A DNA stretch of 63,578 nt, taken from NCBI GenBank assembly GCA_019894975.1, contig JAGXNO010000018.1, forward strand, positions 1-63,578, given 5' to 3'. Source of the stretch: Promethearchaeota archaeon (lineage in GTDB: Archaea > Asgardarchaeota > Lokiarchaeia > Sigyniarchaeales > SOKP01). The position numbers were made by a program, and so were the translations under genes. This document shows positions 19,539-61,193 of the stretch, one piece after another; the stretch's first letter is position 1, and every line of letters begins with the position of its first letter. The notes below the pieces were generated by a model that did no database searches, had not been told where the DNA came from, and saw nothing but the letters and a program-made list of their open reading frames with translations.

Positions 19539-21233
19539 TTATTGTTTATTATAAGCTTGTTCTCTTAATTTTCTTCTAAATACTTTTCCAACGGCTGTAC
19601 GGGGTAATACATTCAAAAATTCAACCTGGCGTGGATATTTATAGCCTGCCATTTTTTCTTTTGCCCAATCGATTATGTCTCGTTCGTTGGTTTTATCTTT
19701 AAAATCCGGTTTCAAAACAATATAAGCTTTAATCGTTTCTCCAATATTTGGATCAGGTGCGGGTACTACTCCTACCTCTAAAATAGCGGGGTGTTCATAA
19801 AGTTTTTCTTCAACTTCTCGGGGCATAACTTTATATCCCTTATATTTTATCATGTCTTTTGTGCGTCCTTCAATGTAAAAATACCCATCTTCATCCATTC
19901 TCGCAAGATCACCAGTTCTTAACCATCCATTTACAATTGCTTCTTCTGTTGCCTCAGGATTTTTCCAGTATCCTTTCATTATCTGAGGTCCTCTAATAAG
20001 TAATTCGCCTATTTCTCCTATTGGAAGCTCTTCTAAAGTGTCAGGATTTACAATAATAGAATCAGTTTCGATTATTGGAACGCCTATACTCTCAGATTTT
20101 ATCTCTGGCATCCATGAGGTAGCAGTATGTGTTATTGGTGATGCCTCTGTAAGTCCAAATCCTTGCCCTGGTTTTACTTCTGTCACCTCTTCCCACTTTT
20201 TTGAAATTTCTGGGGGAAGTGCTGCTGATCCAGCACCAGCAGTTTCAAGACTAGATAAATCTCGTTCGGTGAAATCAGGATTATTAACAATCATTTGGAA
20301 CATAACAGGAACACCAACAAAACCTTTTACTTTATAATATTCAATAGCTTCTAATACCTCAGATGCATTAAAGGATGCGAACATGACTAACATCGTAGCT
20401 AAATGCATAGCAATAATAACAACAGTAAAACCAAAAGAATGACACAAGGGGAGAATAGATAAATTCACCCCAACACCATAGACAGTGGGCTCATCTTCCT
20501 CTGGTTCACCTCTCATTAACATTGCACAAAGACAATCTGAAACTAGATTATTGTGAGTTAGCATTACTCCTTTAGGTAATCCCGTTGTGCCACCTGTATA
20601 CAGTAAAGCAGCAATATCATTCATAGGATCAAAATCCACATCTGGACGTTTGGGTGGTTTGCCCTCAATAAATTCTGTCAAGGTAATTGTACCTTCCTTT
20701 CCTTCTTCGGTGCCAATTAAAATTACGTTTTTCAGTTCTACTAGTTTTCTAACCCGTTTTATTGTTCGATATTGATTTTTATGGATGAATACAGTATTGA
20801 TATTTCCAGCGTCTCTAATTATATGCGCTACATCTCCTTCCTTAAGGAGAGCATTGATAGGGACAACAGCAGCACCTGTTTGCATGATACCTAAAAGACA
20901 AAATAAGAATTCTGGACAATTACTTGCCATTACTCCAACAGCGTCACCTTTTTTAATACCTTCACTAGTTAGTGCGTTTGTTATTTTATCTGCTGTATAT
21001 AATAATTCTCTATATGTATACTTTTTATCTGTTGGTTTATAATAAACACATACATTATTAGGGTATTCTTCCGCTCCTTTTCTTATAAATTCATGTACAG
21101 GAATTGGCTCAAATTTTATTGATTTTGGCACGTTATCCGGTCTATATTTAAACCAAGGTCGATTTTTACTTTGAAGATACGACGATTCGTTTTCATAATC
21201 ATACGTAGCTTCCCAATCTGTATAATCTTTCAT
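19539..21233 (-). CDS. fadD: Long-chain fatty acid-CoA ligase
   Basis: YTGGTTGLPKG, GFGLTE, WLRTGD and LPRTAVGK motifs. Confidence 0.9.
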   Translation of the reverse strand: MKDYTDWEATYDYENESSYLQSKNRPWFKYRPDNVPKSIKFEPIPVHEFIRKGAEEYPNNVCVYYKPTDKKYTYRELLYTADKITNALTSEGIKKGDAVGVMASNCPEFLFCLLGIMQTGAAVVPINALLKEGDVAHIIRDAGNINTVFIHKNQYRTIKRVRKLVELKNVILIGTEEGKEGTITLTEFIEGKPPKRPDVDFDPMNDIAALLYTGGTTGLPKGVMLTHNNLVSDCLCAMLMRGEPEEDEPTVYGVGVNLSILPLCHSFGFTVVIIAMHLATMLVMFASFNASEVLEAIEYYKVKGFVGVPVMFQMIVNNPDFTERDLSSLETAGAGSAALPPEISKKWEEVTEVKPGQGFGLTEASPITHTATSWMPEIKSESIGVPIIETDSIIVNPDTLEELPIGEIGELLIRGPQIMKGYWKNPEATEEAIVNGWLRTGDLARMDEDGYFYIEGRTKDMIKYKGYKVMPREVEEKLYEHPAILEVGVVPAPDPNIGETIKAYIVLKPDFKDKTNERDIIDWAKEKMAGYKYPRQVEFLNVLPRTAVGKVFRRKLREQAYNKQ

Positions 21234-21451
21234 AATATATACACTACTTCTTCCTCTTAACTTCTTTTAATTTTGCTTCTTATTTGAGATTTCGTTATAA
21301 GAAACATTAATTCAATTTAGTAATATGAATTTTAATCTTAAAGTATAAAAGTTTTTTCATATAGATTTGCAAAATTTTATAGATGCCATTCAAACTTTTT
21401 ATGCTTAAGTAAATTACTCTTATATTATAATTATTAAGGGAATGAATAAGA

Positions 21452-22366
21452 ATGGATGTTTTCAAAGATAAGAACGTTTTTATTACTGGAGCTGCTAGTG
21501 GGATTGGTCGTTCCTTTGCTCTTGCTTTAGCTGATCTTGAGATGAATCTTTTTATTACAGATATAAACATGGAAAATTTAGAGAATGTTAAAAAAGAATT
21601 AGAAGAGAAAAATGTAATTGTTTATGCTAGTAAATGCGATGTATGCAATTATAAAGAATTTGAAGAAGTCTCTAAAGATTTTCATGAAAAATTGGGTGAT
21701 ATTGACTTACTCATAAACAATGCAGGAATTGCCATTGTTGGGAGTATAGATAATATTATTTTAGAAGATTGGAAAAAGGTATTAGATGTAAACTTATGGA
21801 GTATTGTTCATTCTATTAAAGCATTTTTACCCAATATGCTAAAAAGAGGTTCTGGTCATATTGTAAATATTGCTTCAGGAGCAGGAATTTTTGGTTCAGT
21901 AGAACCTCTTCCCTATATTACCTCAAAATTTGGGGTGGTGGGGCTTACCGAAGCTCTCTTTGCTCGCCTTAAAAAGAGAGGAATAAATGTTTCAGTAATA
22001 GCCCCCACATATATAAAAACGGATATCTTTAAACTTGAATCAGAGAAAATAGCCTACTCTCCAAAACTTTTAGATGATCATAAAAAAGAAAAGATTGATG
22101 AGATTTATAGGGAAATCTTTGAAGAGATAATGAAAAGTGCTATGTCCCCAGATCGAGCAATTAAAAAGTATATTCGAGGAATTAAGAAGAATCAACTGTA
22201 TATCTTTGATGTAATTGCTACCTCACAGATACTTGCTATGAAGGGTAATAATCCTCAACAATACGAAGATTTTTTAGTAATGTATCAAAAAAATCGAGAA
22301 GAACTAATAAAGAAGCATTTTCTTCAGCATGGGATAAATATAGAAGACTATATCGAATCTTATTAA
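21452..22366 (+). CDS. Short-chain dehydrogenase/reductase (SDR 1)
   Basis: TGAASGIG, NNAG, YITSK; Asp after beta-2 suggests NAD(H). Confidence 0.92.
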   Translation: MDVFKDKNVFITGAASGIGRSFALALADLEMNLFITDINMENLENVKKELEEKNVIVYASKCDVCNYKEFEEVSKDFHEKLGDIDLLINNAGIAIVGSIDNIILEDWKKVLDVNLWSIVHSIKAFLPNMLKRGSGHIVNIASGAGIFGSVEPLPYITSKFGVVGLTEALFARLKKRGINVSVIAPTYIKTDIFKLESEKIAYSPKLLDDHKKEKIDEIYREIFEEIMKSAMSPDRAIKKYIRGIKKNQLYIFDVIATSQILAMKGNNPQQYEDFLVMYQKNREELIKKHFLQHGINIEDYIESY

Positions 22367-22415: not shown

Positions 22416-23321
22416 ATGAAAGATTTTAAGGATAAGAATGGATTTATAACTGGCGCCGCTAGCGGAATTGGGCGGTCTTTTGCTCTAGCTTTAGCTAAAC
22501 GGGGTATGAATCTTTACATCACAGATATCAATATGGAAAGTTTAGAGAAGGTTAAATTAGAAATTGAGAAGATAGGGGTAAAAGTTTTCGTATGTAAGTG
22601 TGATGTTTCTAGATATAAAGATTTTGAAAAAGCGGCGAAAGATTTTTATGAGAAATTGGGTGAGTTGGATCTTCTGATCAATAACGCAGGAATTTCTATG
22701 GGTTTTGATTTACTCAATATCGATTTAAAAGTCTGGAAGAGAGTAATGGATGTAAATTTAGGAAGTATAATCCATTCAATAAAAGCATTTTTACCACGCA
22801 TGATAAAAAGAGGTTCAGGTTATATAGCAAATGTAGCCTCAGGAGCAGGCATCTTGGGAATAGCAGAACCAATTCCATATATTGCATCAAAATTTGGAGT
22901 GGTAGGACTCTCAGAGACTTTTTTTGCTCGATTAAAAAATCTCGGTATAAATGTGTCTGTTATTGTGCCAATGTGGATAAAGACAAATATAATTGTTGTT
23001 GATACAGATAAAATTCAGTATCCCCCAAAACTTCTAGAAGATTTTGGAAAAGAAAAATTGGATAAAGCTTATAGCACATTGATGGATGTAATAGCAGAAG
23101 GAGCTATCTCACCAGATGATGCCGTAGAATTCTATATTGAAGGAATTCAGAAGAACCAACTATACATATTTGATAATCCTTATTATTTAGAAGCATTAGA
23201 GATGAAAGGGAAAGATCCCAAACAATATGAGGATCATATCGTAGAAGGATTTACAAACCGAGGTAAAGCCTTTAGGGAACACTTCCATAAACATGGAATT
23301 GATATTGAGAAGTATATGTAA
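22416..23321 (+). CDS. Short-chain dehydrogenase/reductase (SDR 2)
   Basis: TGAASGIG, NNAG, YIASK. Confidence 0.92.
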   Translation: MKDFKDKNGFITGAASGIGRSFALALAKRGMNLYITDINMESLEKVKLEIEKIGVKVFVCKCDVSRYKDFEKAAKDFYEKLGELDLLINNAGISMGFDLLNIDLKVWKRVMDVNLGSIIHSIKAFLPRMIKRGSGYIANVASGAGILGIAEPIPYIASKFGVVGLSETFFARLKNLGINVSVIVPMWIKTNIIVVDTDKIQYPPKLLEDFGKEKLDKAYSTLMDVIAEGAISPDDAVEFYIEGIQKNQLYIFDNPYYLEALEMKGKDPKQYEDHIVEGFTNRGKAFREHFHKHGIDIEKYM

Positions 23322-23334
23322 AAAAGGGAAAAAT

Positions 23335-24231
23335 ATGAAAGATTTAAAAGGAAAAAATTGTTTTATAACGGGTGCGGCTAGCGGAATCGGACGCTCAGTA
23401 GCACTTGAGCTTGCAAGGGAAGGAATGAATCTTTATATAACAGATATTAATGAAGAAGGATTGGCAAATGTCAAAAAAGAAATAGAAGAGATTGGAGTTA
23501 AAGTAATCTCGAGTAAGTGTGATGTCTCAAAATTCGAAGATTGGGAGAAATGTGAAGGAGTTTTTAGGGAAAATCTAGGGGATATTGATCTTTTGGTAAA
23601 TAATGCGGGAATTGCTATAGGTGGGAGTATTTTGCAACTTGAGTTAGAAGATTGGGAAAAAGTACTTGGTGTAAATTTATGGAGTATTATATATTCACTA
23701 AAAACGTTCGTGCCAAGAATGTTAGCAAAAGGCTCGGGACATATAGTAAATGTATCATCTGGGGCAGGGATATTTGGATCACCAGAACCTCTCCCTTATG
23801 TAACAACAAAATTCGCGGTGGTGGGATTATCTGAAGCATTATTTGGTAGTCTAAATGGTATGGGGATAAATGTATCTGTAATCTGTCCTTGGGTTATCGC
23901 GACGAATATTTGGAATATTTCTGAACTGAAAGTTCCACAAAAACTTATAGAAGATGTAGGGGAGGAAAAAATAGAAGAGATGATGAATGAAGTGAGACAA
24001 GGATTCCTTGATATTGCTATATCACCTGATGAGGTTGCAAAGATCTATGTAAAAGAGATTAAAGAGAATAAGTTATACATCTGTGATAATAAAGACTATT
24101 TTAATATTCTGGCATTGAAGGGTAAGCCACAGGAATTTGAAAATGCCCTTAAAATGATTCATGCTGAACGTACTAAAAATATGAGAGATAGGTACAGCAA
24201 GATGGGTATTAATATTGATGATTATAGATAA
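23335..24231 (+). CDS. Short-chain dehydrogenase/reductase (SDR 3)
   Basis: TGAASGIG, NNAG, YVTTK. Start moved to ATG 23335 (MKDLKGK) by paralog alignment. Confidence 0.92.
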   Translation: MKDLKGKNCFITGAASGIGRSVALELAREGMNLYITDINEEGLANVKKEIEEIGVKVISSKCDVSKFEDWEKCEGVFRENLGDIDLLVNNAGIAIGGSILQLELEDWEKVLGVNLWSIIYSLKTFVPRMLAKGSGHIVNVSSGAGIFGSPEPLPYVTTKFAVVGLSEALFGSLNGMGINVSVICPWVIATNIWNISELKVPQKLIEDVGEEKIEEMMNEVRQGFLDIAISPDEVAKIYVKEIKENKLYICDNKDYFNILALKGKPQEFENALKMIHAERTKNMRDRYSKMGINIDDYR

Positions 24232-24253: not shown

Positions 24254-25117
24254 ATGAAAGAATTTAAAGACAAAGTGGCCGTGATTACCGGAGCCGGAAG
24301 TGGTATTGGTTTTGCTCTGGCTGAGCGTTGTGCAAAGGAAGGGATGAAAGTAGTGTTTGCAGATATTGATGAGAAATTCTTAAGAAAAGCAGAAAGGAAG
24401 ATGAAAAGGCTTGAAGCGGATGCTATCACCGTTTTGATTGATGTTTCAAAGGTTAGTGATATTGAAAAATTAGCAAAAAAGACGCTTGAAACTTATGGAG
24501 CAGTTCATCTTTTGGTAAATAATGCAGGAATTGGTAATACCAAATACACATGGAATTATACATTAAAAGATTGGGAGTATCAATTGGGTGTGAATCTTTG
24601 GGGAGTGATTAATGGTGTTAGACTTTTTTTACCGATTATGTTGAAACAAGATGAAGAATGCCATATTGTAAATGTAGCATCGATGGAAGGATTATTTTCG
24701 GGTTCTGGTCCTGGAGGTGCTATTTATGGTGTATCTAAGCATGGAGTAATCTCTTTAAGTGAAACATTACGAACTGATTTAGAAATGAAAGGAAGCAAAA
24801 CTAAAGTTTCAGTTGTATGTCCGGGATTTGTTAATACAAGAATCTTGTTTGGTGACACTCATCGTTCGGAAAAATATCAGAATCTTCCAAGTGAAGAAAG
24901 TGAAGATACAAGGGGAGAAGACTTTTTTGCCAGATTTGGAACAGAAGCTGAAGAATTGTTGAAGCAGACAAGAATTATACCCTCCGAAGAAGCAGCAGAT
25001 ATCATTTTTCAAGCGATTAAAGAGGATAAATTTTACATTCTCACCCATAAAGATGCCCTCATGAAGAGACTTGTAAAGGAAAGATTTGATGAAATTCTTG
25101 AGGAGTTTGAATCCTAA
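24254..25117 (+). CDS. Short-chain dehydrogenase/reductase (SDR 4)
   Basis: TGAGSGIG, NNAG, YGVSK; AGGAG SD. Confidence 0.92.
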   Translation: MKEFKDKVAVITGAGSGIGFALAERCAKEGMKVVFADIDEKFLRKAERKMKRLEADAITVLIDVSKVSDIEKLAKKTLETYGAVHLLVNNAGIGNTKYTWNYTLKDWEYQLGVNLWGVINGVRLFLPIMLKQDEECHIVNVASMEGLFSGSGPGGAIYGVSKHGVISLSETLRTDLEMKGSKTKVSVVCPGFVNTRILFGDTHRSEKYQNLPSEESEDTRGEDFFARFGTEAEELLKQTRIIPSEEAADIIFQAIKEDKFYILTHKDALMKRLVKERFDEILEEFES

Positions 25118-25169: not shown

Positions 25170-26189
25170 TTAAGGTTTTATCAATACTTTTACAGATTCT
25201 TCAATATTACACTGAGTTTCAAAAGCCTCTTTAGCTTGGTCTACTGAGAATTCATGTGATAGAATTTTTGATCGATCTACCTGTTTATTCTCAATTAATT
25301 TTATGCTTTTTTTCATTTCCAAAGGGGTAAACCCAAACGATCCAATAACTTTTACTTGTTTTGCAATCATAAAGGTTAAATCCAATTTTACGCTTTCCTC
25401 GAATATGCCGTGAACAACGACAGTGCCAGTATATGATCGAGCCATATTAATAGCTTGTTGAAGGACTAATGGTGCTTTCTGATCTTTTATGTATCCTACA
25501 CAATCATAAACAATATCAACTTTTGGCATTGGAAATATTGCTGGACCAAATGTGGGCATAGAACCTACAATTTCCATAATTTTTGAAGGGACACTTTCAG
25601 TTTTAGCATTGATGATTTCATTAGCACCTAACTCTTTTGCTAGTTTTAAACGAGAATCCGATAGATCTATGATAACAAGTTTATTCGGCTTAATACCAAG
25701 CGCTTTCAAGCATTGGATTATACCAAGACCTATTGTTCCTGCACCATAAATAACAATATTCGCACCATTAAATGGTTTACCCTTCATCAGCGCATGGTAT
25801 GAATTTGCTAACGGTTCAAGCGTTGCTGCTGCTTCATACCCTACACTAGATGGTAATTTATACACATTATAACCATATGTAATAGGGATAGGAACATATT
25901 CAGCCATACCGCCATTTGAAAGGGCCACAACCCGATCACCAACCTTAAATTTTTTAATATTCTTACCTACTTCTACAATTTCACCACTATATTCATGACC
26001 GGGGATTCCTCCCTTCTTTAAAGGTCTAGTAAGCATTGGAGAATAGAGATTTAATTTATACATATGTAAATCTGAGCCGCAAATCCCACAAGCTTTAACG
26101 TTTATAAGAATCTCATTATCTTGGATCTTAGGCTTTTCCACTTCTTCTGTTCTGATGTCTTTTATTCCATAAAAAACTGCAGCTTTCAT
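25170..26189 (-). CDS. Zn-dependent medium-chain alcohol dehydrogenase lacking the structural-Zn lobe
   Basis: CGICGSD, GHE and GAGTIG present. The 4-Cys lobe is absent between GDRV and GGMAEY. Confidence 0.9.
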   Translation of the reverse strand: MKAAVFYGIKDIRTEEVEKPKIQDNEILINVKACGICGSDLHMYKLNLYSPMLTRPLKKGGIPGHEYSGEIVEVGKNIKKFKVGDRVVALSNGGMAEYVPIPITYGYNVYKLPSSVGYEAAATLEPLANSYHALMKGKPFNGANIVIYGAGTIGLGIIQCLKALGIKPNKLVIIDLSDSRLKLAKELGANEIINAKTESVPSKIMEIVGSMPTFGPAIFPMPKVDIVYDCVGYIKDQKAPLVLQQAINMARSYTGTVVVHGIFEESVKLDLTFMIAKQVKVIGSFGFTPLEMKKSIKLIENKQVDRSKILSHEFSVDQAKEAFETQCNIEESVKVLIKP

Positions 26190-26330: not shown

Positions 26331-27170
26331 ATGAAAGATTTTAAAGATAAAGTTGCGGTAATAACGGGGGCTGCTAGCGGTATAGGACAAGCACTTGCTT
26401 ATCAGTGCGGCAAAGAAGGGATGAAAGTAGTCATTTCTGATATTGATGAGAAACGTCTTAGAAGAACTGAACGAAAATTAAAAAGAGAAGGAACAGTTGT
26501 CTTATCGGTAATAACAGATGTTTCTAAACACGGGGATATCGAAGATTTAGCAAAAAAAACACTAGACGCTTTCGGAGCAGTACATCTTTTATTTAATAAT
26601 GCTGGAGTTGCATTGCCCAAACTTACCTGGGAATATGAATTGGATGATTGGGACTTTGTCCTAGGGATCAATTTGATGGGTGTAATCTATGGAATTCGAA
26701 CTTTTATCCCACAAATGATCAAACAAGACACTGAATGTCATGTTGTGAATATATCATCTATTGAGGGATTACTGTACAACGGTGTAGGTGGTGCTACCTA
26801 TGGTGTATGCAAACACGCCCTTGTTTTCCTTTCGGAGAGATTAACACAAGAATTAGAAGAAAATGACCATAAAATAAAAGTATCTGTAGTTTGTCCGGGA
26901 TTTGTAATGACAAATATCTTCATGTCTTCAATAAACCGTCTTCCTGAAGAAGCTAGAGATGGGTTCTTTCAATCGGAGATGGATGAGGAAACTATGGAAA
27001 ATCTCCAAGAGTTTCTTGAACAATCTCCTGGTAAAACGCCCGAAGAAGTCGCAGATATCGTATTCCAAGGAATAAAAGATGAAAAACTTTATATTTTAAC
27101 TCATAAACAGCCAATTCTAAAAGATATGCTGAAAGAAAGATATGATGCAATACTAAAGGCTTTTGATTAA
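26331..27170 (+). CDS. Short-chain dehydrogenase/reductase (SDR 5)
   Basis: TGAASGIG, NNAG, YGVCK; closest to SDR 4. Confidence 0.92.
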   Translation: MKDFKDKVAVITGAASGIGQALAYQCGKEGMKVVISDIDEKRLRRTERKLKREGTVVLSVITDVSKHGDIEDLAKKTLDAFGAVHLLFNNAGVALPKLTWEYELDDWDFVLGINLMGVIYGIRTFIPQMIKQDTECHVVNISSIEGLLYNGVGGATYGVCKHALVFLSERLTQELEENDHKIKVSVVCPGFVMTNIFMSSINRLPEEARDGFFQSEMDEETMENLQEFLEQSPGKTPEEVADIVFQGIKDEKLYILTHKQPILKDMLKERYDAILKAFD

Positions 27171-31049: not shown

Positions 31050-31169
31050 CTTATCATTGAATGATTTATCTACTATATTTTCTTCCTTATTCTGAGATTA
31101 TAGAAAAAACTTCTTATTTGATAATAAGTCAAAAATATTATTACAATCAAAAAAATCGTGATCAAAAAA

Positions 31170-45428: not shown

Positions 45429-45440
45429 GATTATCACCTT

Positions 45441-53550: not shown

Positions 53551-53554
53551 CATA

Positions 53555-53827
53555 ATGGGTAAATTTATGGGAATGGGAAAAGAAATGGGAAAGATTGAAA
53601 TTGATGATAGAGGTCGGTTAACATTACCATCTAAAATAAGAGATTCTTTAAATATAAAGCCAGGAGATAAGCTGACTATTAAAATAAATCAAGACAATAA
53701 GATAACTCTTCAGAAAAATCCTTCGAAAATAGAAATATTTGAAAATCTAGTTGGCTGTATCAAAACACCCTCTGAAGAAAAAGCAACTCCGGAGTCGATT
53801 AAAGAAATATGGAAAATGCAGCAATAA
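53555..53827 (+). CDS. vapB: AbrB/MazE/SpoVT-family antitoxin
   Basis: IDDRGRLTLPSKIRDSLNIKPGDKL signature; overlaps a PIN gene. Several alternative ATGs. Confidence 0.88.
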   Translation: MGKFMGMGKEMGKIEIDDRGRLTLPSKIRDSLNIKPGDKLTIKINQDNKITLQKNPSKIEIFENLVGCIKTPSEEKATPESIKEIWKMQQ

Positions 53828-54231
53828 TCTTTATTGATTCAAATTATTGGATTTACCTTTTCGACGAAACTACAGCAGAACATACTTATGTTAAAAATCA
53901 TTTTGAAAAAATCTATGATCAATGCCAAATTGCTATTAATATCCCTGTAATGATCGAAGTTATGCATTACATTGTAAAAAGGCTAGGAGCAAATCTTGCT
54001 AAACCTAAATGGGATCTATTTTCTTCAATGAATTTCATATATGACGATTTAACTTTTCAAGATTTAGACCTTGTTTTTAATGAATTATCTAATTTTACAC
54101 ATACTGGAATAGGGGCTAGAGATGCAACCATATTAGCCTCAATGAAGAAATTGTCAGTTCAAAAAATATGTACACATGATAAAAGTTTCACAAAAGTATC
54201 CAATATTGAAGTTATTGACCCAATCCCATAA
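53809..54231 (+). CDS. vapC: PIN-domain toxin
   Basis: IFIDSN, IEV, RDATILA and THDKSF acidic tetrad. True start may be ATA 53824. Confidence 0.9.
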   Translation: MENAAIIFIDSNYWIYLFDETTAEHTYVKNHFEKIYDQCQIAINIPVMIEVMHYIVKRLGANLAKPKWDLFSSMNFIYDDLTFQDLDLVFNELSNFTHTGIGARDATILASMKKLSVQKICTHDKSFTKVSNIEVIDPIP

Positions 54232-54295
54232 TTTAAATATTAACTTATTAATGAAAACTTACAAATTTAAATTAATTCCTAATTTTTTGAATGTA

Positions 54296-54940
54296 ATGAC
54301 TGATTTTAATGTAGAATTTGAAGAAAATCTTAAACCTACTTTTTTTATGGATTGGGAACATCCATCAATCTTACAAAAAGCCAAGGAACTAACAGAAGGC
54401 ATAGAAGATGACATTGATAAGGCAATTAATTTATTTTACTTTGTCCGGGACGGTATAAGATATTCAGTTAAAGATGCTCGCAAATCTTATGATAAGGAAG
54501 AGTGGAAATCAAGTTTAACCTTAAAAAAAGGATATGCATTTTGCATCCCAAAAGCGATTTTGTTAGCTTCGTTAGCCCGAGCTGTTGGCATACCCTCAAG
54601 ACTTCATTATAATGATATTGTAAACCATATGACAAGTGATAGACTCAAAAAAGATATGGGTAGCAGTCTTTTCATATTTCATGGATTTGTCGAACTATTT
54701 CTAAATGGAAAATGGGTAGAAGCAAATTGTGCATTCGATAAAGAGCTATGTATAAGGAAAAATTATCCTTGGGTTGATTTTGACGGAGTTAAAGATGGAC
54801 TTTTTGCCAGTACGAATAAAGATGGTGAACCATTTGTAGACTATGTGAAAGATCGGGGAGTTTACAATGATGCGCCTCATCAAGAAGTATTAGAGACTTG
54901 GGCTAAAGAGTATCCCGACCGTTATGAAAAACCGAAATAA
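54296..54940 (+). CDS. Transglutaminase-like cysteine protease family protein
   Basis: FYFVRDGIRY, FCIPKAILLASLARAVGIPSR and FHG..E...GKWV. Start set at ATG 54296. Confidence 0.88.
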   Translation: MTDFNVEFEENLKPTFFMDWEHPSILQKAKELTEGIEDDIDKAINLFYFVRDGIRYSVKDARKSYDKEEWKSSLTLKKGYAFCIPKAILLASLARAVGIPSRLHYNDIVNHMTSDRLKKDMGSSLFIFHGFVELFLNGKWVEANCAFDKELCIRKNYPWVDFDGVKDGLFASTNKDGEPFVDYVKDRGVYNDAPHQEVLETWAKEYPDRYEKPK

Positions 54941-55057: not shown

Positions 55058-56590
55058 ATGTCAAAAGTCAAAAGTGCATTTAAGGAAATTGAGCATATCG
55101 TTGGAGACGATTTTATAACTGATAAAGATTTCATGAAGGCAGCCTATTCAAGGAATGTAGATCCAGCATTTCCAGATAGGTGGGCTGATATGATTGTACG
55201 ACCTGAAACAACTGAAGAAGTCTCTGAAATAGTCAAGATTGCAAATAAATACAAAATTCATATGGTTCCACGCGGAGGGGGTGCTGACCTAGTTGGGGGT
55301 TCAGTGTCAGAAGGGGGTATCCTTATTGATCTTACTAGAATGAATAAAATAATAGAAATTAATGAAGATGATTACTATTACATTGTTGAGTGTGGTGTTA
55401 CGTGGGGCGCTTTATTATCAGAATTACATCCAAGAGGTTTAACTTCTGGTGTTACAGGGCCAGGAAGTGGATTTGCAGCAACTATTGGAGGGGGCCTTTC
55501 AAATAGCACAGCTGGTGGAGGTTCTACAAAATATGGATTAGTCCCTGACGTGTGTTTGGGTGTAGAGGCAGTACTCCCAAATCCTCAAGGAACGATAGTG
55601 AGAACTGGATCAGCTGCAAATCAATACGCTACACCTTTCTGTAGGTATGGTGTTGCCCCTGATTTCACTGGACTATTCATGGGTGATGTGGGGACCATGG
55701 GCATAAAGACCAAAGCATTTATGAGATTATTTCCAGATCCTCCTTATAAAGCTTCTCGAATGTATGTATTTGCTAAGAACGATTATAATAAGGTATTTGA
55801 AAAAGCTCATAAATTGCGAAAAGAAGTTGGAGATGGATTGCTTGGCTTAAGTGTTCTACCACTTGAAATTACCATGATGATGGCTGCTCGAATGGCCACA
55901 GGCCCAAAGAGACCACGAATAAGAGGACCATTGTGTGCAATAAATTTAGAAGCTACTGATCAACGAATTTTAGATGTATACATTGAAAAAGTAGATGAAA
56001 TTATGTTAAAAGATGAGGATACTCGAGCTTTTAATTTTCAGGAAATCGATCCAAATATGGAAAGACCAGACACATGGCAGTATAACTTAGAAGCGAGTTT
56101 CAACTATTTTCATAATATGATTTCAGTAGCACCTCCTAAGGTCACCTGTACCACATGTCATAAAGTACCAATGTCAGGTTTACCAGAGTTATCTAAAAAA
56201 GCCCAACAGTTTGATATTTTAAATAATAAAAACTACCCTCCCGGAACTATGGCTATTTGGGCTGGTGTAATAGCTTTTATGCCTAACGGTAATTGTATCT
56301 TTGTTGGAGGTTTTAATGCTGATAATGTAGAAGAAAAACGTCAGCTTTCAATGGATTTATGGCACAAGAAGATAAGGTATCAAGTTCGATATGGAGGTGT
56401 TCACTACTGGCTTGGTGAGTCTATCTCACAATCTATTACGGAAGCAGGAGCTTTTACAGAGGACTTCGAGCAATTCTTCAGAGATATAAAGAAAACAGTT
56501 GATCCAAATTACTTGCTTTCACCTAATAAGTTCCATCTTCACACCTATGAAAGTCGATTCTCCGATCATCTTGTATCTGATGAAGAATAA
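55058..56590 (+). CDS. VAO/PCMH-type FAD-binding oxidoreductase 3
   Basis: Same motifs as paralog 2; canonical ATG start (MSKVK). Confidence 0.88.
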   Translation: MSKVKSAFKEIEHIVGDDFITDKDFMKAAYSRNVDPAFPDRWADMIVRPETTEEVSEIVKIANKYKIHMVPRGGGADLVGGSVSEGGILIDLTRMNKIIEINEDDYYYIVECGVTWGALLSELHPRGLTSGVTGPGSGFAATIGGGLSNSTAGGGSTKYGLVPDVCLGVEAVLPNPQGTIVRTGSAANQYATPFCRYGVAPDFTGLFMGDVGTMGIKTKAFMRLFPDPPYKASRMYVFAKNDYNKVFEKAHKLRKEVGDGLLGLSVLPLEITMMMAARMATGPKRPRIRGPLCAINLEATDQRILDVYIEKVDEIMLKDEDTRAFNFQEIDPNMERPDTWQYNLEASFNYFHNMISVAPPKVTCTTCHKVPMSGLPELSKKAQQFDILNNKNYPPGTMAIWAGVIAFMPNGNCIFVGGFNADNVEEKRQLSMDLWHKKIRYQVRYGGVHYWLGESISQSITEAGAFTEDFEQFFRDIKKTVDPNYLLSPNKFHLHTYESRFSDHLVSDEE

Positions 56591-56771
56591 TTTTTTTTTT
56601 CCTATTTCTTTTCTTATTGTATTCTTAAAATAAAACTTCTATTGAAATTAAGATAGATTAATTATTCTAAAGACAGTATAGCTAGTACGAGCTAACTATT
56701 TAAGGGCAACAATTAAATTAGATTCAACATTTAAAACAAATCAATTAACATTAACAAAAAAAGTGATTAAA

Positions 56772-58253
56772 ATTTCGAAAGTGAAAGAAGCATATAGTGA
56801 GATTGAAAGCGTTGTTGGGGAAGATTTTGTTTCTGATAAAGATTTCATGAAAGCTGCATACTCTAGAAATGTGGATCCTGCGTTTCCAGATAGATGGGCA
56901 GATATAATAGTAAAACCAGAGACTACTGAGGAAGTATCTGAGATTGTTAAAATCGCAAATAAATATAAATTGCGAATGGTTCCACGAGGTGGGGGTGCCG
57001 ATCTCGTTGGAGGAAGTGTTACAGAGGAAGGAATCTTAATTGATATGACTCGAATGAATAAGCTTGAAGAATTCAACAAAGATGATTACTACATTGTTGT
57101 TGGAGTCGGAATTACTTGGGGAGATTTACTTTCTCAATTAGTTCCCGAGGGATACACTACTGGTAATACGGGTCCTGGGAGTGGGTTCTCTGCTACTATT
57201 GGTGGGGGTCTATCAAATAGTACAGCTGGAGGAGGGTCAACTAAATATGGTCTTGTTCCGGATAACTGCCTTGGTGTTGAAGTCGTTCTTCCAAATCCAG
57301 AAGGGACAATTATTAAAACTGGTTCTGCTGCAAATAAATATGCCAAACCATTCTGCAGGTATGGTGTTTCACCTGATTTCACAGGTCTGTTCATGGGTGA
57401 TGTGGGGACCATGGGAATTAAATGCAAAGCCTCCTTACGAATATACCGTGAACACCCCTATAAAGCCAATCGAGTTTTCCTCCTTAAGGAGTATGATTAT
57501 AATAAAGTCTATTTGTTAGCTAGAAAAATTAGGTACGAAATCCCTGATGGGTTACTTGGTTTAAGCGCATTTCCGCCTTTTTACTTCGCCCAGTTTAAAA
57601 TTCCGAATGTTAAAGGTCCAGGAGTATCGGTTTCTCTAGAAGCTACGGAAATGGAGATTCTTGAGATGTACATTAAAAAACTTGAAGATATTATGAAAGA
57701 AGACACAGTTATGATGCCTGCCGCTCCTGGCGCTAACGCTAAACCTAATTTGAAAGCGGCTTTTCACTACTTTCAAGCAGGAATTTCCCCAGTCCCTGGG
57801 AGAATTGCTATGGCAACATGTCATAAAATCCCAATCTCAACTTTAGGTCATGTACATGATGAGAACGTTGATTGGAATAATAGGCATGCAAAAGATATAC
57901 CAGGATCAGTTATGCCAGGAGTTTTTGAGGCAACACAATACTTCTTACCTAACGGAAATATGGTTGTGTTAGGAGGTGTAGCAGGAGAAAATAAGGATGA
58001 AATGCGGGAGAGGAATATGAATCTCTGGCATTCAAAAATTCGAACGCAGGTACGATATGGTGGAGCACACTATTGGTTAGGGGAATCCATTTCACAATCA
58101 GTAGTTGAATCCGGCGCGTTTGAACCTGAATATGAACAATTCTTCAGGGATATGAAGAAAACAGTTGATCCTAATTATCTGCTTAGTCCCAATAAATTTC
58201 ATCTGCATACTTATGATTCTAAGTTTGCAGACCACTATGTAGAACCAGATTAA
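56772..58253 (+). CDS. VAO/PCMH-type FAD-binding oxidoreductase 4
   Basis: Same motifs. Start placed at ATT 56772 by alignment; alternative is GTG 56763. Confidence 0.88.
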   Translation: MSKVKEAYSEIESVVGEDFVSDKDFMKAAYSRNVDPAFPDRWADIIVKPETTEEVSEIVKIANKYKLRMVPRGGGADLVGGSVTEEGILIDMTRMNKLEEFNKDDYYIVVGVGITWGDLLSQLVPEGYTTGNTGPGSGFSATIGGGLSNSTAGGGSTKYGLVPDNCLGVEVVLPNPEGTIIKTGSAANKYAKPFCRYGVSPDFTGLFMGDVGTMGIKCKASLRIYREHPYKANRVFLLKEYDYNKVYLLARKIRYEIPDGLLGLSAFPPFYFAQFKIPNVKGPGVSVSLEATEMEILEMYIKKLEDIMKEDTVMMPAAPGANAKPNLKAAFHYFQAGISPVPGRIAMATCHKIPISTLGHVHDENVDWNNRHAKDIPGSVMPGVFEATQYFLPNGNMVVLGGVAGENKDEMRERNMNLWHSKIRTQVRYGGAHYWLGESISQSVVESGAFEPEYEQFFRDMKKTVDPNYLLSPNKFHLHTYDSKFADHYVEPD

Positions 58254-58440: not shown

Positions 58441-59976
58441 ATTTCGAAAGTGAAAGAAGCATATAATGAGATTGAAAGTGTTGTTGGGGAAGATTATGTA
58501 ACCGATAAAGACTTCATGAAAGCGGCATATTCAAGAAATGTCGATCCTGCGTTTCCTGACCGTTGGGCTGACGTGATAGTGCGTCCTGAAACTACTGAAG
58601 AAGTATCTGAGATTGTGAAGATTGCCAATAAATACAAAATAAGAATGGTCCCACGAGGAGGGGGCGCTGATTTAGTAGGAGGAAGCGTAACCGAAGAGGG
58701 TATTCTTATAGATTTAACAAGAATGAATCAGGTTATTGAATTCAACAAAGATGACTATTATATCGTAGTTGGTTGTGGTATCACGTGGGGAGCATTAATC
58801 TCATACCTTCACCCTACAGGTTATAGTACAGGTGTTATTGGTCCTGGAAGTGGATTCGCCGCGACAATCGGGGGTGGTTTATCGAATAGTACAGCTGGAG
58901 GAGGTTCTACTAAATACGGTCTTGTTCCCGATATTTGTCTGGGGGTTGAGGTTGTACTACCAAACCCAGAAGGTACAATCATTAGAACTGGTTCCGCAGC
59001 AAACAAATATGCAAAGCCCTTCTGTAGATATGGTGTTTCACCTGACTTTACAGGTTTGTTTATGGGCGATGTAGGAACTATGGGAATTAAGACCAAAGCA
59101 TTCTTAAGAATATTCCCAGATCCTCCATATAAACAAGCACGCATGTATGTGGTTAATAAACCGGATTATAACAAGGTATTTGAGTTATCACATAAGATAC
59201 GGTTTGAAATAAATGAAGCTTTAAGAGATATTTCTGTTTTACCACCGATTTTAGTTCAAATGCAAGCACCACGATATGCAAAGCAAACAGGTCAAAAACT
59301 TACTGCTAAAGGTCCTTTAATGAATATTACAATAGAAGCTATGGAAGAAAGCACACTAAATTTAAAACTCGACAAGCTTGCCAAGATCATGGAAAATGAA
59401 GCAGAGCGAGTATCTGGTTCCTTAGTAAATCCTGAGTTTGATGATGAACCTAAATTTGGTTATGATCTCGAAGGTACTTTCCATTTTTTCCAGCAATCTA
59501 TTTCACCTACGCCTGCTCAAATTTCAATGGCAACTTGTCATAAAATTCCTATTTCTAATATGGGGCAAGTTTATGATAAAGTCGTTGATTTTAGCAAAAA
59601 ACATGCTGCTGAGATGGGTGCTGGTGCTATCTATCCTGGAATTTTTGCTTCAATGCTCTACTTTCTACCAAACGGTAATTTTGTAGTGTTAGGAGGTGTT
59701 GGGGGAAAGAATGTAGAGGGAGAACGAGAAAGGAATATGAAGAATTGGCACAGGAAGATACGACATCAAGTACGATACGGTGGAGCACATTACTGGCTTG
59801 GAGAGTCAATATCCCAATCAGTTACGGAAGCAGGAGCGTTTACTCCCGAATATGAACAATTTTTCAGAGATATGAAGAAGACAGTAGATCCCAATTACTT
59901 GCTATCTCCAAATAAGTTCCATTTGCACACGTATGATTCGAAATTTAAAGATTATTATGTAGAAGAGGAAGATTAG
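58441..59976 (+). CDS. VAO/PCMH-type FAD-binding oxidoreductase 5
   Basis: Same motifs. Start placed at ATT 58441 by alignment; alternative is GTG 58450. Confidence 0.88.
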   Translation: MSKVKEAYNEIESVVGEDYVTDKDFMKAAYSRNVDPAFPDRWADVIVRPETTEEVSEIVKIANKYKIRMVPRGGGADLVGGSVTEEGILIDLTRMNQVIEFNKDDYYIVVGCGITWGALISYLHPTGYSTGVIGPGSGFAATIGGGLSNSTAGGGSTKYGLVPDICLGVEVVLPNPEGTIIRTGSAANKYAKPFCRYGVSPDFTGLFMGDVGTMGIKTKAFLRIFPDPPYKQARMYVVNKPDYNKVFELSHKIRFEINEALRDISVLPPILVQMQAPRYAKQTGQKLTAKGPLMNITIEAMEESTLNLKLDKLAKIMENEAERVSGSLVNPEFDDEPKFGYDLEGTFHFFQQSISPTPAQISMATCHKIPISNMGQVYDKVVDFSKKHAAEMGAGAIYPGIFASMLYFLPNGNFVVLGGVGGKNVEGERERNMKNWHRKIRHQVRYGGAHYWLGESISQSVTEAGAFTPEYEQFFRDMKKTVDPNYLLSPNKFHLHTYDSKFKDYYVEEED

Positions 59977-59987
59977 GTGAAAAAAAT

Positions 59988-61193
59988 ATGACAGAATTTG
60001 AACCAAAGGAAAAATTTAAGCATTTGGCGAAAATTGGTCCGAATGTATTGCAATGTATTGCGTGCGGTGATTGTAGAGAACAAACCGATTATACTGCTGA
60101 TCCACCAAAATGGGGGGTGTGTGTTGCAAAGGAACACACATCTGGGTTTGAACCATATTTTGCTCGTGGAAAAATGCAAATTATTCGATCTCTTTGGCAA
60201 GGCAAGCTTGATTTGAGTAAGGAAATGGCTGAGGTTATTTATCAATGCCCAACATGTAATGCTTGCTCAGAGGCTTGTGCTTATGACATGGATAATGTTG
60301 CGATGTATGAAGCACTACGAGCGGAATTAGTAGATGCAGGATGTGGTTTAGAAGCCCATATTCCAATGAACAAAGCAATGGTGGAGCTTTTAAATCCTTA
60401 TGAAAGAGATAACAGGTTAAAAGCTAAATGGCTTGAAAAATTGGATTTTAAAGTGAAAGATGCTAATACCGAACAAACAGAAAATCTCTATTTTGTAGGT
60501 TGTACAGCAGCTCTAACTCCTGATATTGAAAACGTAGCAATAAATTCAGCTAAGATTTTTAATAAATTAGGAATTGACTTTTCCGTATTTGGAGAGCAGG
60601 AAGTGTGTTGTGGAAGTGTAGGCATGCGAACAGGTGACCTAAAAGCTTTCAACTCAGTTGCAACAAAGAATTATGAAATGTTTAAGAGAAGTGGAGTAAA
60701 ATCAATCATAACAAGTTGCGCAGGTTGTTACAGGACTTTAAAGAAAGATTATGCTGATTATATGGAAGAACTTGGAATTACGGTTTATCACACAATTGAG
60801 TTCCTAGCCAAGTACATAAAAGAAAACAATGTAGAGTTAAAAAACTCAGGTTTGAAAACCACATACCATGATCCTTGCCATACTGGAAGACATATGGGGC
60901 TCTATGATGAACCAAGAGAAATCTTGAGCAAAATTTCGAATTTAACTGAAATGAAAACAATTAAACAAGCAGCAAAGTGCTGCGGTGCAGGTGGAGGAGT
61001 AAGAAAAGGTTTTGCTGAATTATCTATAGATATTGCTAAGAGTAGAATACAAGAAGCAGAAGAAACAGGTGCTGAATATTTGGTGAGTATATGTCCATTC
61101 TGCTATAGAAATTTAGCTGATGCCATTGAAGCGTTAGGATCAAATCTCAAAATGGTAGATTTAACAGAATTAATAATTCAAGCTTTAGAATAA
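59988..61193 (+). CDS. Fe-S oxidoreductase with two CCG domains (HdrD/GlcF/GlpC-like) 2
   Basis: CIACGDC, CPTCNACSEAC and two CCG domains; 11 bp downstream of FAD paralog 5. Confidence 0.9.
   Translation: MTEFEPKEKFKHLAKIGPNVLQCIACGDCREQTDYTADPPKWGVCVAKEHTSGFEPYFARGKMQIIRSLWQGKLDLSKEMAEVIYQCPTCNACSEACAYDMDNVAMYEALRAELVDAGCGLEAHIPMNKAMVELLNPYERDNRLKAKWLEKLDFKVKDANTEQTENLYFVGCTAALTPDIENVAINSAKIFNKLGIDFSVFGEQEVCCGSVGMRTGDLKAFNSVATKNYEMFKRSGVKSIITSCAGCYRTLKKDYADYMEELGITVYHTIEFLAKYIKENNVELKNSGLKTTYHDPCHTGRHMGLYDEPREILSKISNLTEMKTIKQAAKCCGAGGGVRKGFAELSIDIAKSRIQEAEETGAEYLVSICPFCYRNLADAIEALGSNLKMVDLTELIIQALE

Follow-up and report, generated by a model that had tools for sequence, protein, structure and literature searches.

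A ~42-kb gene island of acyl-CoA enzymes and FAD/iron-sulfur modules in a Lokiarchaeia genome, a candidate system for the catabolism of hydrophobic acids

Background

Peroxisomal branched-chain beta-oxidation (FATP2/VLCS, AMACR, MFE-2, SCPx and SCP2), the bbs operon and steroid side-chain genes (ChsH-Ltp2, Shy-Sal and FadD17/19), the GlcD/GlcF and YdiJ D-2-hydroxyacid dehydrogenases, and the KT/DUF35 fatty-acid synthase complex of Sulfolobus acidocaldarius are the described systems closest to the locus reported here. This locus is a ~42-kb block (positions 19539-61193) of a 63,578-nucleotide stretch of DNA from a Promethearchaeota archaeon of the Lokiarchaeia (GenBank assembly GCA_019894975.1, contig JAGXNO010000018.1), which we analysed in full and call the window. 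It combines acyl-coenzyme A (acyl-CoA) enzymes with FAD-binding flavoproteins of the VAO fold and iron-sulfur proteins with CCG domains. We propose that the block is an island specialised for the CoA-dependent catabolism of a family of acids that are hydrophobic, bulky and/or 2-methyl-branched, and that this catabolism is coupled in function to the VAO/CCG dehydrogenases, a reading to which we give about as much credence as doubt. All of the gene families in the island are already known, and the expansion of beta-oxidation and CoA-ligase genes in Lokiarchaeia has been published (PMC8027215). In the literature searched, we found no description of the island, of its racemase, SCP2 and SCPx-type content or of its VAO/CCG partners, and nothing specific on Asgard archaea together with SCP2, racemase or HdrD/GlcD. 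What appears to be undescribed there is a positional core and its expansion, the racemase/SCP2/SCPx-type content, a clade of thiolase-like proteins with an HDAT motif, and the coupling to a clade of VAO/CCG proteins.

The island resembles the peroxisomal system in its AMACR-type racemase candidate with a full catalytic set, its FATP-like ligases, its thiolases of the SCP2-thiolase subfamily and its SCP2-fold carriers encoded beside a thiolase. It differs from that system in that its components are all separate genes, its hydratases are of the crotonase type (hydratase 1) and not MaoC/hydratase 2, its short-chain dehydrogenases/reductases (SDRs) show no particular likeness to MFE-2, an acyl-CoA oxidase or dehydrogenase is lacking, and the SCP2-adjacent thiolase reads HDAT, not HDCF. 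The host is moreover anaerobic, and nothing in peroxisomes corresponds to the VAO/CCG modules apart from the distantly similar AGPS fold. With the bbs operon and the steroid side-chain genes, the island shares a DUF35 partner of an SCPx-type thiolase-fold enzyme, a family III CoA-transferase-fold protein, SDR and crotonase steps, and several AMP-forming ligases for bulky acids. Unlike those systems, it has no acyl-CoA dehydrogenase (ACAD; BbsG/ChsE), its DUF35 protein is free-standing (128 amino acids) and not fused to a MaoC hydratase, its thiolase ThlA keeps HDCF and is hence a thiolase, in contrast to the Ltp2 and Sal aldolases (YDHF/YDCY), and its CaiB protein has a racemase signature, which sets it apart from BbsEF-type transferases.

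As in GlcD/GlcF and YdiJ, a VAO-fold FAD subunit is encoded beside an HdrD/GlcF-like protein with two ferredoxin-type clusters and two CCG domains, and the overall fold of the flavoprotein is similar as well (TM score 0.76 to mouse LDHD). However, the His-His-Glu metal site of those enzymes is absent, the VAO proteins of the window do not match the FAD-oxidase_C cap model, and their genomic partners are acyl-CoA enzymes. The S. acidocaldarius complex is likewise archaeal and pairs KT/DUF35 with nearby SDR and medium-chain dehydrogenase/reductase (MDR) genes, whereas the island has NAD-type SDRs, crotonases in place of a MaoC dehydratase, and in addition ligases, a racemase, SCP2 and VAO/CCG genes.

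Results

Gene content and density

The window makes up all of contig C85 in a 3.9-Mb metagenome-assembled genome (MAG; 95% complete, 8.6% contamination). We performed a Pfam scan of every open reading frame (ORF) of at least 90 amino acids in the block, which reproduced exactly all counts of an earlier sequence-only reading that had likened the region to an unfused peroxisomal or steroid side-chain pathway in an Asgard archaeon. The Asgard host is borne out by the close relatives of the window's proteins, which come from MAGs titled Promethearchaeota or Promethearchaeia, i.e. Lokiarchaeia; the G+C content of the window is 30-38%, and typical Asgard genes (WD40, TPR, OST3/6-like and arrestin-like) lie upstream on the contig. 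The acyl-CoA and VAO/CCG genes of the block are as follows, with Pfam matches in brackets:

19539-21233, minus strand: AMPlig1, FadD-like long-chain acyl-CoA synthetase, one end of the core (AMP-binding, E = 9e-85)
21452-22366, plus strand: SDR1 (adh_short; SDR1-SDR4, E = 1e-46 to 9e-52)
22416-23321, plus strand: SDR2 (adh_short)
23293-24231, plus strand: SDR3 (adh_short)
24254-25117, plus strand: SDR4 (adh_short)
25170-26189, minus strand: MDR1, Zn-type polyol/secondary-alcohol dehydrogenase-like (ADH_N and ADH_zinc_N)
26331-27170, plus strand: SDR5, NAD-type (adh_short)
28448-28834, plus strand: DUF35-like zinc-ribbon protein, 128 amino acids (zf-ChsH2, 21 bits, just below the cut-off of 23.2)
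28839-30059, plus strand: ThlA, SCP2-type thiolase (Thiolase_C_1, E = 4e-29)
30201-31049, plus strand: ECH1, crotonase (ECH_1; ECH1-ECH3, E = 1e-31 to 1e-37)
31158-32021, plus strand: ECH2, crotonase (ECH_1)
32127-33014, plus strand: ECH3, crotonase (ECH_1)
33055-34326, minus strand: CaiB protein, AMACR/Mcr-type 2-methylacyl-CoA racemase candidate (CoA_transf_3, E = 8e-100)
34395-35441, plus strand: MDR2, zeta-crystallin/quinone-oxidoreductase-type candidate ene-reductase (ADH_zinc_N_2)
35506-37170, minus strand: AMPlig2, FATP/CaiC/FadD17-like (AMP-binding; AMPlig2-4, E = 2e-51 to 7e-61)
37360-39072, minus strand: AMPlig3, FATP/CaiC/FadD17-like (AMP-binding)
40122-41828, minus strand: AMPlig4, FATP/CaiC/FadD17-like (AMP-binding)
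42006-42455, minus strand: VOC protein (Glyoxalase_4, E = 1e-12)
44199-45437, minus strand: CCG1, HdrD/GlcF/TfrB-like Fe-S protein (CCG, E = 6e-37; Fer4_8)
45441-46949, minus strand: VAO1 (FAD_binding_4, E = 1e-34)
47140-47580, plus strand: SCP2a (SCP2; E = 7e-13 and 1e-6 for the pair)
47724-48146, plus strand: SCP2b (SCP2)
48239-49492, plus strand: ThlB, SCP2-thiolase-like, HDAT and not HDCF (Thiolase_C_1)
51833-53377, minus strand: VAO2 (FAD_binding_4, E = 2e-38)
55058-56590, plus strand: VAO3 (FAD_binding_4; VAO3-VAO5, E = 1e-38 to 2e-40)
56763-58253, plus strand: VAO4 (FAD_binding_4)
58450-59976, plus strand: VAO5 (FAD_binding_4)
59988-61193, plus strand: CCG2, HdrD/GlcF-like Fe-S protein, other end of the core (CCG, E = 3e-37; Fer4_8)

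The genome as a whole encodes ~20 such ligases, ~25 SDRs, ~17 crotonases and 9 VAO-type genes, and 5 of these 9 VAO-type genes sit in the block. These families are much denser in the block than elsewhere: the runner-up among 42-kb stretches of the genome has 8 matching genes. Part of the excess is due to tandem duplication, as the nearest relative of each paralog lies inside the window. In a genome-wide comparison, every multi-copy family in the block consisted of mutual nearest paralogs, with the following identities:

SDR1-3: 52-61% to one another
SDR4/5: 54% to each other
ECH1-3: 46-60% to one another
AMPlig2-4: 61-74% to one another
VAO2-5: 61-69% to one another
SCP2a/b: 52-57%
CCG1/2: 56%

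Given the mutual nearest paralogs and the outlying density, we conclude that the block is a product of local duplication plus gene gain and is not a chance accumulation. No tRNA genes or obvious integration signature were found in the window.

An expanded core at a conserved position

We searched related genomes and loci for the same arrangement; here, G000 is the window's own genome, other G numbers are sampled species genomes, L numbers are related loci on NCBI MAG contigs, and C numbers are contigs. The whole island is colinear, with differing copy numbers, in 3 of 18 congeneric species genomes (G002:C8, G018:C114, and G012:C42, where it is interrupted by the contig end) and on the NCBI MAG contigs L028, L029, L037, L038 and L060, so that the synteny in relatives which the sequence-only reading had named as a check is indeed found. 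Genes of the AMPlig2-4 type and the ThlB type were confined to G000, G002, G012 and G018 among the 31 genomes searched, with one further genome (G017) carrying a paralog of the type found on C87 (listed below). VAO2-type genes (at least 60% identity) form arrays in G000, G002 and G018, are single in five more congeners, and were absent from all 12 genomes searched that represent other genera of the order.

Upstream of the block lie four flank genes:

16114-16518, plus strand: thioredoxin (Pfam)
16854-17981, plus strand: OYE-family flavin oxidoreductase (Pfam, Oxidored_FMN)
18028-18945, plus strand: cation-efflux CDF protein (Pfam)
19034-19477, plus strand: tetraspan membrane protein

This flank is kept in G002 and G012, and it adjoins the island or the core in G002, G012, L040, L041, L044, L067 and others. 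Next to it in L040, L041 and L044 is a ~8-kb locus with the order AMPlig1, SDR (SDR1-3 type), SDR (SDR4/5 type), acetoacetate-decarboxylase-family gene, CCG and VAO; L043 shows this core gene order too, on a contig that stops before the flank, and in L042, L048, L057, L061 and L067 the flank adjoins VAO(-VAO)-CCG. Orthologs of AMPlig1 with 70-86% identity adjoin SDR-SDR-CCG-VAO in L040-L044 and also in G002. The ligase/SDR and CCG/VAO ends are together at one chromosomal position in several MAGs, with protein identities of 56-73%. AMPlig1 and VAO5-CCG2 are therefore the two ends of a ~8-kb conserved core, and from the shared position of this core in other MAGs it follows that the island is its expansion, by ~34 kb of inserted and tandemly duplicated genes, in the window's lineage. 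The core position supports a functional tie of ligase/SDR with VAO/CCG better than adjacency in a single genome does.

Other loci join the same families in different orders: VAO, nitroreductase-ferredoxin, ligase, ThlB, ligase, VAO and CCG in L052 and L068; VAO, VAO, CCG, DUF35, ThlA, ligase and ThlB in L056; SDR, VAO, VAO, CCG, ligase, DUF35 and ThlA in L062; and another VAO-CCG arrangement with ligase and thiolase genes in L039. Of 45 related loci, ~35 have a VAO gene followed by CCG2, the CCG1-VAO1 pair is kept in G002, L028 and L038, and the DUF35-ThlA pair is kept in G002 and G012. Sub-modules of the island also have second copies on other contigs of the same genome (C87, C127, C92 and C114):

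C87:108363-110308: SCP2 and HDAT thiolase
C127:15768-18415: SDR and AMPlig1-like ligase (66% identity)
C92:17287-24678: transglutaminase-like gene, CCG and VAO
C114:3707-8412: three tandem MDR2-like genes

Several of the contigs with VAO orthologs of 67-94% identity (L031, L033, L038, L039, L057, L062, L066 and L067) are titled Bathyarchaeota, Thorarchaeota, Hodarchaeota, Hermodarchaeota or Helarchaeota, and these public taxon labels look inconsistent.

Racemase candidate and ligases

The CaiB protein matches PF02515 over the full model length (E = 8e-100), and its best PDB matches are M. tuberculosis Far, AMACR and Mcr (E = 1e-55 to 1e-52), well before true CoA-transferases. Aligned to 1x74, it keeps His126/Asp127 (in GHDINY), Asp156 and Glu241 in M. 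tuberculosis Mcr numbering (AGHDINY/AGHDINY, VGDIGG/VGDFGGG and GAMEPKF/GAIEPQF); the roles of the His126/Asp156 pair, Asp127 and Glu241 in Mcr are established. It is ~60 amino acids longer than Mcr. Among the five CaiB-type genes of the genome, GHD(I/L)NY is found in this copy and, in part, in a 63% identical paralog on C55, which lies near an ACAD and has a copy in all congeners. The AMACR/Mcr likeness proposed from the sequence alone thus holds for the catalytic residue set, and the protein passes the testable features of a 2-methylacyl-CoA racemase, an activity that it may have.

AMPlig1 is nearest to the long-chain ligase model PRK06187 in NCBIfam (440 bits, cut-off 476). AMPlig2-4 have FATP2/SLC27A2 as their best PDB match (E = 1.5e-41), and their nearest NCBIfam model is PRK06155, followed by FadD6-like and CaiC models, all below cut-off. 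Models for steroid and bile-acid ligases were also missed (FadD17, 164-204 bits against 850; the steroid-22-oyl-CoA synthetase CasI, 172-219 against 900; CaiC, 243-257 against 651). The claim of ligases for bulky acids therefore stands insofar as the triplet is nearest to FATP2, a very-long-chain acyl-CoA synthetase, and falls short at the FadD17, CasI and CaiC cut-offs.

Thiolases, SCP2 proteins and other acyl-CoA enzymes

ThlA has the motifs Cys79, HDCF (297-300) and GHP346. ThlB keeps the nucleophilic Cys90 and GHP360, but HDAT replaces HDCF, as it does in 118 of its 120 closest relatives; a fusion to SCP2 (PF02036) occurred in 0 of the 120 best relatives (229-730 amino acids searched). The best PDB match of ThlB is zebrafish SCP2-thiolase type-1 (6hsj, 3e-56), with the archaeal HMG-CoA synthase-complex thiolase and BbsB close behind. 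Known variants of the HDCF motif of SCP2-thiolases are YDCF (SLP), YDCY (Sal) and YDHF (Ltp2) (PMC12329534). As HDAT matches none of these, we leave the chemistry of ThlB unassigned and call it only SCP2-thiolase-like. Judged by these motifs, ThlB and its 118 HDAT relatives form a distinct, always unfused thiolase-like clade. SCP2a and SCP2b are separate genes directly upstream of ThlB. The SCPx likeness suggested earlier is thus carried by the SCP2-thiolase subfamily of both thiolases and by the separate SCP2 genes beside one of them, while the HDCF cysteine is lacking in ThlB.

All five SDRs have an Asp at the end of beta-2 (NAD type) and YxxxK, and each of the three crotonases has both catalytic Glu residues. 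These motifs, together with those of ThlA, support the prediction of active enzymes. SDR1 had yeast MFE-2 (2et6) as its top match, and kinship with MFE-2 was rejected, as the two SDR domains of that protein inflate the score and no single stretch passed alone. The hydratases are crotonases and not MaoC proteins, and the idea that they are of the peroxisomal MFE-2 or steroid ChsH type did not hold up. The best PDB matches of MDR1 are butanediol, sorbitol and threonine dehydrogenases. MDR2 matches 3tqh, RTN4IP1 and the chloroplast alkenal/one reductase, and scores 100 bits against an acryloyl-CoA reductase model with a cut-off of 500. The VOC protein is weakly methylmalonyl-CoA-epimerase-like (TIGR03081, 54 bits against a cut-off of 115).

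VAO/CCG modules

The VAO proteins form a small, Promethearchaeota-centred clade. A scan of 1.84 billion cluster representatives with VAO2 gave only 136 clusters with E < 1e-30, about ten of which align full-length, and the ESM Atlas neighbours of a VAO protein fall in Promethearchaeota-dominated clusters. An AF2 model of VAO2 (predicted local distance difference test score, 90.7) has the two-domain VAO/PCMH fold, and Foldseek gave TM scores of 0.72-0.78 to mouse LDHD, PCMH, eugenol oxidase (EUGO) and AGPS, which does not separate the subgroups. The His-His-Glu metal site (HxGDGNxH and EHGxG; H398/H405/E442 in mouse LDHD) is absent in a profile alignment to 8jdb/8jdc; the two motifs occur in 0 of 62 aligned members (the five window proteins and their 57 nearest cluster representatives), and the window proteins read LPNGN... 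and GG(A/V)HYW(L/M)GE at these positions. We therefore rejected a role of the modules as D-lactate or glycolate dehydrogenases, the metal ligands being missing.

The best single-sequence PDB matches of VAO1 are vanillyl-alcohol dehydrogenase, p-cresol methylhydroxylase and eugenol oxidase, before GlcD-type enzymes. For the phenolate-binding triad (Tyr108, Tyr503 and Arg504 of VAO), comparison with the M. flavus vanillyl-alcohol dehydrogenase suggests that one of three residues is kept, the C-terminal Tyr; the GYGG Tyr is replaced, and E-Y-R becomes H-Y-W in a C-terminal stretch that aligns weakly (i-E 0.54). A reading of the VAO proteins as 4-alkylphenol oxidases is weakened by this comparison. 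With the metal site missing and the phenolate triad mostly missing, the VAO proteins probably belong to neither characterised subgroup (D-2-hydroxyacid or 4-phenol-oxidising). Among VAO2-5, the FAD domains share 79-87% identity and the C-terminal segments 82-92%, whereas the cap (substrate) domains share 34-52%, and each paralog has an 88-94% identical ortholog in G002. A conserved FAD domain with divergent caps and conserved orthologs is the pattern expected for maintained, substrate-diversified enzymes, which these proteins may well be.

CCG1 and CCG2 have the HdrD/GlcF/TfrB architecture, and CCG1 matches the TfrB model with E = 5e-63, below its cut-off. The CCG proteins may pass electrons to a thiol/disulfide acceptor, a possibility raised by the flank thioredoxin and by DsrE-DsrE-DsrH genes beside the modules in L042 and L044. 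VAO/CCG genes are linked repeatedly with ligase, SDR and thiolase genes in other MAGs. The FAD/CCG modules may serve as the electron outlet of the region, as the sequence-only reading had proposed.

Smaller loci show further neighbours of these modules. Genes of the acetoacetate-decarboxylase family (PF06314) occur among VAO/CCG genes (L042, 11628-12350 and 15265-16026; L044, 12841-13638), and no such gene is found in the window's island. DsrE-DsrE-DsrH, OYE and SRPBCC/Polyketide_cyc2 genes lie directly upstream of VAO-CCG (L044, 6921-9933; L042, 7946-8687), a setting that suggests a thiol/persulfide partner of CCG and, in the SRPBCC protein, a further carrier of hydrophobic ligands. At least 12 related loci have paralogs of the OYE gene (26-36% identity) beside VAO-CCG; G012 has three copies, and in G002 they come after CCG2. 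The thioredoxin and OYE flank genes may belong to the system.

Acyl-CoA dehydrogenases and the canonical beta-oxidation genes

The sequence-only reading had pointed to the lack of ACAD and electron-transfer flavoprotein (ETF) genes. No match to ACAD (PF00441) or ETF (PF01012) was found on contig C85, and this absence is limited to the contig, since other contigs of the genome carry at least 11 ACADs, ETF alpha and beta, at least 9 3HCDH and 6 MaoC proteins, as well as 3 methylmalonyl-CoA mutases and 10 HGD-D-family matches. A missing ACAD as a feature of the pathway was thus rejected at the level of the genome. With this canonical ACAD/ETF/3HCDH/MaoC toolkit located elsewhere, the island is a second, differently built set, with SDRs in place of 3HCDH and SCPx-type in place of classical thiolases. 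No ACAD or ETF homologs were found in the 52 related loci examined either. The substrates of these ACAD-free loci may arrive with the double bond or hydroxyl group already in place, ACADs encoded at a distance may serve the island, or a different flavoprotein may do the step; candidates for the latter are VAO/CCG, the nitroreductase-ferredoxin fusion, and OYE or MDR2 working in reverse.

Other genes within the block

The following genes in the block are additional to those of the sequence-only reading:

27167-28123, minus strand: MBL-fold metallo-hydrolase (Lactamase_B, E = 2e-29)
39220-39954, minus strand: isochorismatase-like hydrolase, among AMPlig2-4
42606-43649, plus strand: fusion of 2x[4Fe-4S] ferredoxin and nitroreductase-fold flavoprotein (Nitroreductase, E = 8e-32; Fer4)
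49590-50603, plus strand: IU_nuc_hydro-like protein (Pfam)
50745-51773, plus strand: DUF3795-containing protein (Pfam)
53555-53827, plus strand: MazE-like antitoxin (Pfam)
53809-54231, plus strand: PIN toxin (Pfam)
54176-54940, plus strand: transglutaminase-core protein, within the VAO array (Pfam)

Some of these are conserved in position. Orthologs of the MBL-fold hydrolase (61-79% identity) are at the same place in G002 and G012, the nitroreductase-ferredoxin fusion recurs beside VAO, ligase and ThlB genes in L029, L037, L052 and L068, and the IU_nuc_hydro-like and DUF3795 proteins have orthologs of 73-84% identity in G002, G018, L028 and L034. The transglutaminase-like gene lies between VAO2 and VAO3 in L028, L030, L032-L034 and L038, and a paralog of 40% identity is found near the VAO-CCG pair on C92. 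The MazE/PIN pair sits inside the VAO array, where the first 56 bases of the transglutaminase-like gene are shared with the PIN ORF. A 550-base AT-rich gap (43650-44198) that separates the nitroreductase-ferredoxin gene from CCG1 and has no ORF of more than 66 amino acids is probably a divergent or convergent regulatory region.

Discussion

A possible origin and mechanism of the island

We suggest that the island arose from a core of one AMP-forming ligase, two NAD-type SDRs, a VAO-fold flavoprotein and an HdrD/GlcF-like CCG protein. Between the core ends, the ~34 kb would have brought in three FATP/CaiC-like ligases, the AMACR-type racemase, three crotonases, further SDRs, a DUF35-partnered SCPx-type thiolase, two SCP2 carriers with a second thiolase-like enzyme, and an ene-reductase-type MDR, along with a Zn alcohol dehydrogenase, a VOC epimerase-like protein, a ferredoxin-nitroreductase fusion and four more VAO paralogs with divergent caps.

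The steps that follow are drawn from family assignments unless a residue or motif is named. The ligases would activate hydrophobic, bulky and/or 2-methyl-branched carboxylic acids to CoA thioesters, and the racemase, whose catalytic residues are present, would epimerise the 2-methyl centre. The crotonases, with both catalytic Glu in place, would hydrate enoyl-CoA intermediates, and the SDRs, with their cofactor motif, would oxidise the products with NAD+. The HDCF thiolase and its DUF35 partner would then cleave, while the SCP2 proteins would hold the hydrophobic chain. The step from acyl-CoA to enoyl-CoA may be unneeded for the true substrates, or it may be supplied by ACAD/ETF encoded elsewhere. 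The VAO/CCG pairs would carry out a separate FAD-dependent dehydrogenation of the non-thioester part of the molecule, probably at an alcohol or activated C-H, with the [4Fe-4S]/CCG clusters relaying electrons to an acceptor at the disulfide or ferredoxin level. That ligases, SDRs, hydratases and VAO caps have all multiplied in parallel suggests several related substrates and not a single compound.

Several points weigh against a catabolic island of this kind. The island is not one operon, as it uses both strands and includes unrelated genes (MazE/PIN and a nucleoside-hydrolase-like gene). It is present in only 4 of the 19 sampled species genomes of the genus, G000 included, and about half of the 45 related loci are VAO-CCG without recognisable acyl-CoA neighbours. 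VAO-CCG also stands beside acetoacetate-decarboxylase-family and DsrE/DsrH genes, and its link to thioester chemistry may be indirect. ThlB is without the acid/base cysteine expected of a working SCPx-type thiolase. Finally, none of the 20 island proteins scanned scored above any NCBIfam equivalog cut-off, including those for bile-acid, steroid and carnitine enzymes, and for this reason we word the substrates at the level of families and assign no specific enzyme names.

Alternative explanations

Two narrower proposals on the substrate seem about equally possible, and each is rather unlikely in our estimate. In the first, the island would degrade isoprenoid-derived or polycyclic lipids (phytanate/pristanate-like chains of archaeal lipids, or the side chains of sterols or hopanoids) in the manner of peroxisomal branched-chain beta-oxidation, with the components unfused. 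The kept AMACR catalytic residues, FATP2 as the nearest solved ligase, and a vertebrate SCP2-thiolase as the nearest solved relative of ThlB, with two SCP2 genes directly upstream of it, all point this way, although "nearest in PDB" mirrors what was crystallised and not phylogeny. The VOC protein is weakly methylmalonyl-CoA-epimerase-like and the three methylmalonyl-CoA mutases elsewhere in the genome could take propionyl-CoA; reductases of the OYE family, which the bai pathway also employs, are found repeatedly next to the locus. On the other side, the hydratases are crotonases and not MaoC/hydratase-2, the SDRs are generic once the inflated 2et6 match is set aside, ThlB reads HDAT while ThlA pairs with DUF35 and not SCP2, the FadD17 and steroid-22-oyl-CoA synthetase models are far from reached (164-219 bits against cut-offs of 850-900), and the island holds no solution for a 3-methyl branch (alpha-oxidation or carboxylation). 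The peroxisome/steroid analogy of the sequence-only reading is accordingly a mixed case, sustained by the racemase residues, the FATP2-like ligases and the SCP2-type thiolases and undercut by the crotonase hydratases, the HDAT of ThlB and the lack of equivalog matches. As to its isoprenoid or steroid substrates, nothing tested separates them from, for example, lignin-derived aromatic acids.

Such lignin- or humic-derived aromatic acids are the second proposal. VAO/PCMH-like enzymes would attack alkylphenol side chains, and ligase, crotonase, SDR and thiolase would shorten cinnamate-type chains that are already unsaturated, so that no ACAD would be needed. This fits the best PDB matches of VAO1 and the absence of ACAD/ETF from the 52 related loci. 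Matches to the benzylsuccinate enzymes BbsB, BbsD and the Bbs CoA-transferase were also obtained with the thiolases, an SDR and the CaiB protein, and ECH2 and ECH3 match p-hydroxycinnamoyl-CoA hydratase/lyase (E = 1e-19 to 1e-23), but the Bbs and hydratase/lyase models are not top matches. Loki-3 archaea are stimulated by lignin and humic acids and have expanded CoA-ligase and beta-oxidation gene sets (PMC8027215). However, apparently only one of the three phenolate-binding residues is kept, with the C-terminal alignment weak, and a 2-methylacyl-CoA racemase and SCP2 carriers are unexpected for phenylpropanoids. Between the two proposals, the racemase and SCP2 genes favour isoprenoid or sterol-like substrates, and the VAO/PCMH kinship, the ACAD-free loci and the published stimulation of Loki-3 favour aromatic ones.

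It is doubtful, in our view, that the block is no single pathway at all and instead a recombination or duplication hot spot that gathers independent modules (VAO/CCG dehydrogenases, a generic acyl-CoA set, toxin-antitoxin genes and hydrolases), which would be together by descent and not by shared function. The use of both strands, the interspersed unrelated genes, the copy numbers that differ among G000, G002, G012 and G018, the many loci with VAO-CCG and no acyl-CoA genes, and the separate AMPlig1-SDR, SCP2-thiolase and VAO-CCG-transglutaminase groups elsewhere in the genome are all as a hot spot would have them. The conserved co-location of the two core ends in several MAGs (56-73% protein identity), the at least three different arrangements that reunite VAO-CCG with ligase and thiolase genes, and the conservation of individual paralogs at 88-94% across species argue for shared function instead.

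A more far-reaching version of the catabolic reading is, we think, quite improbable. Under it, VAO/CCG would be a new kind of anaerobic dehydrogenase that acts on hydrophobic, branched or polycyclic acyl chains (e.g. an ACAD/ETF-independent desaturase or a C-H-activating hydroxylase that sends electrons to a disulfide acceptor) and that forms, with the racemase, ligases, SCP2 and thiolases, an Asgard system for the degradation of isoprenoid- or sterol-like lipids specifically related to the ancestor of eukaryotic peroxisomal branched-chain beta-oxidation.

Very unlikely, lastly, is an anabolic island, an ACP-independent archaeal synthase of fatty acids or lipid chains as in Sulfolobus (ketothiolase/DUF35, SDR, dehydratase and MDR, or beta-oxidation in reverse): the KT/DUF35 pair, SDRs and ene-reductase-type MDR are present, no ACAD is in the island, and Asgard genomes have several KT/DUF35 pairs proposed for fatty-acid synthesis, but the Sulfolobus ketoacyl-CoA reductase is strictly NADPH-specific and its complex has a MaoC dehydratase (bioRxiv 10.1101/2024.07.05.601840), whereas the island SDRs carry the NAD-type Asp, its hydratases are crotonases, MDR2 is far below the acryloyl-CoA reductase cut-off, and four AMP-forming ligases with a racemase fit the uptake and degradation of free acids.

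Significance

Lokiarchaeia are abundant in anoxic sediments, and their diet is largely inferred. The catabolic island proposed here is a concrete, clonable set of enzymes with which the degradation of branched or bulky lipids or of aromatic acids by Asgard archaea can be tested, and its five diversified VAO copies in one locus are a natural experiment in the evolution of substrate range. If it is true that the racemase, SCP2, thiolase and FATP-like genes are specifically related to peroxisomal enzymes, the locus would also bear on the origin of eukaryotic lipid catabolism.

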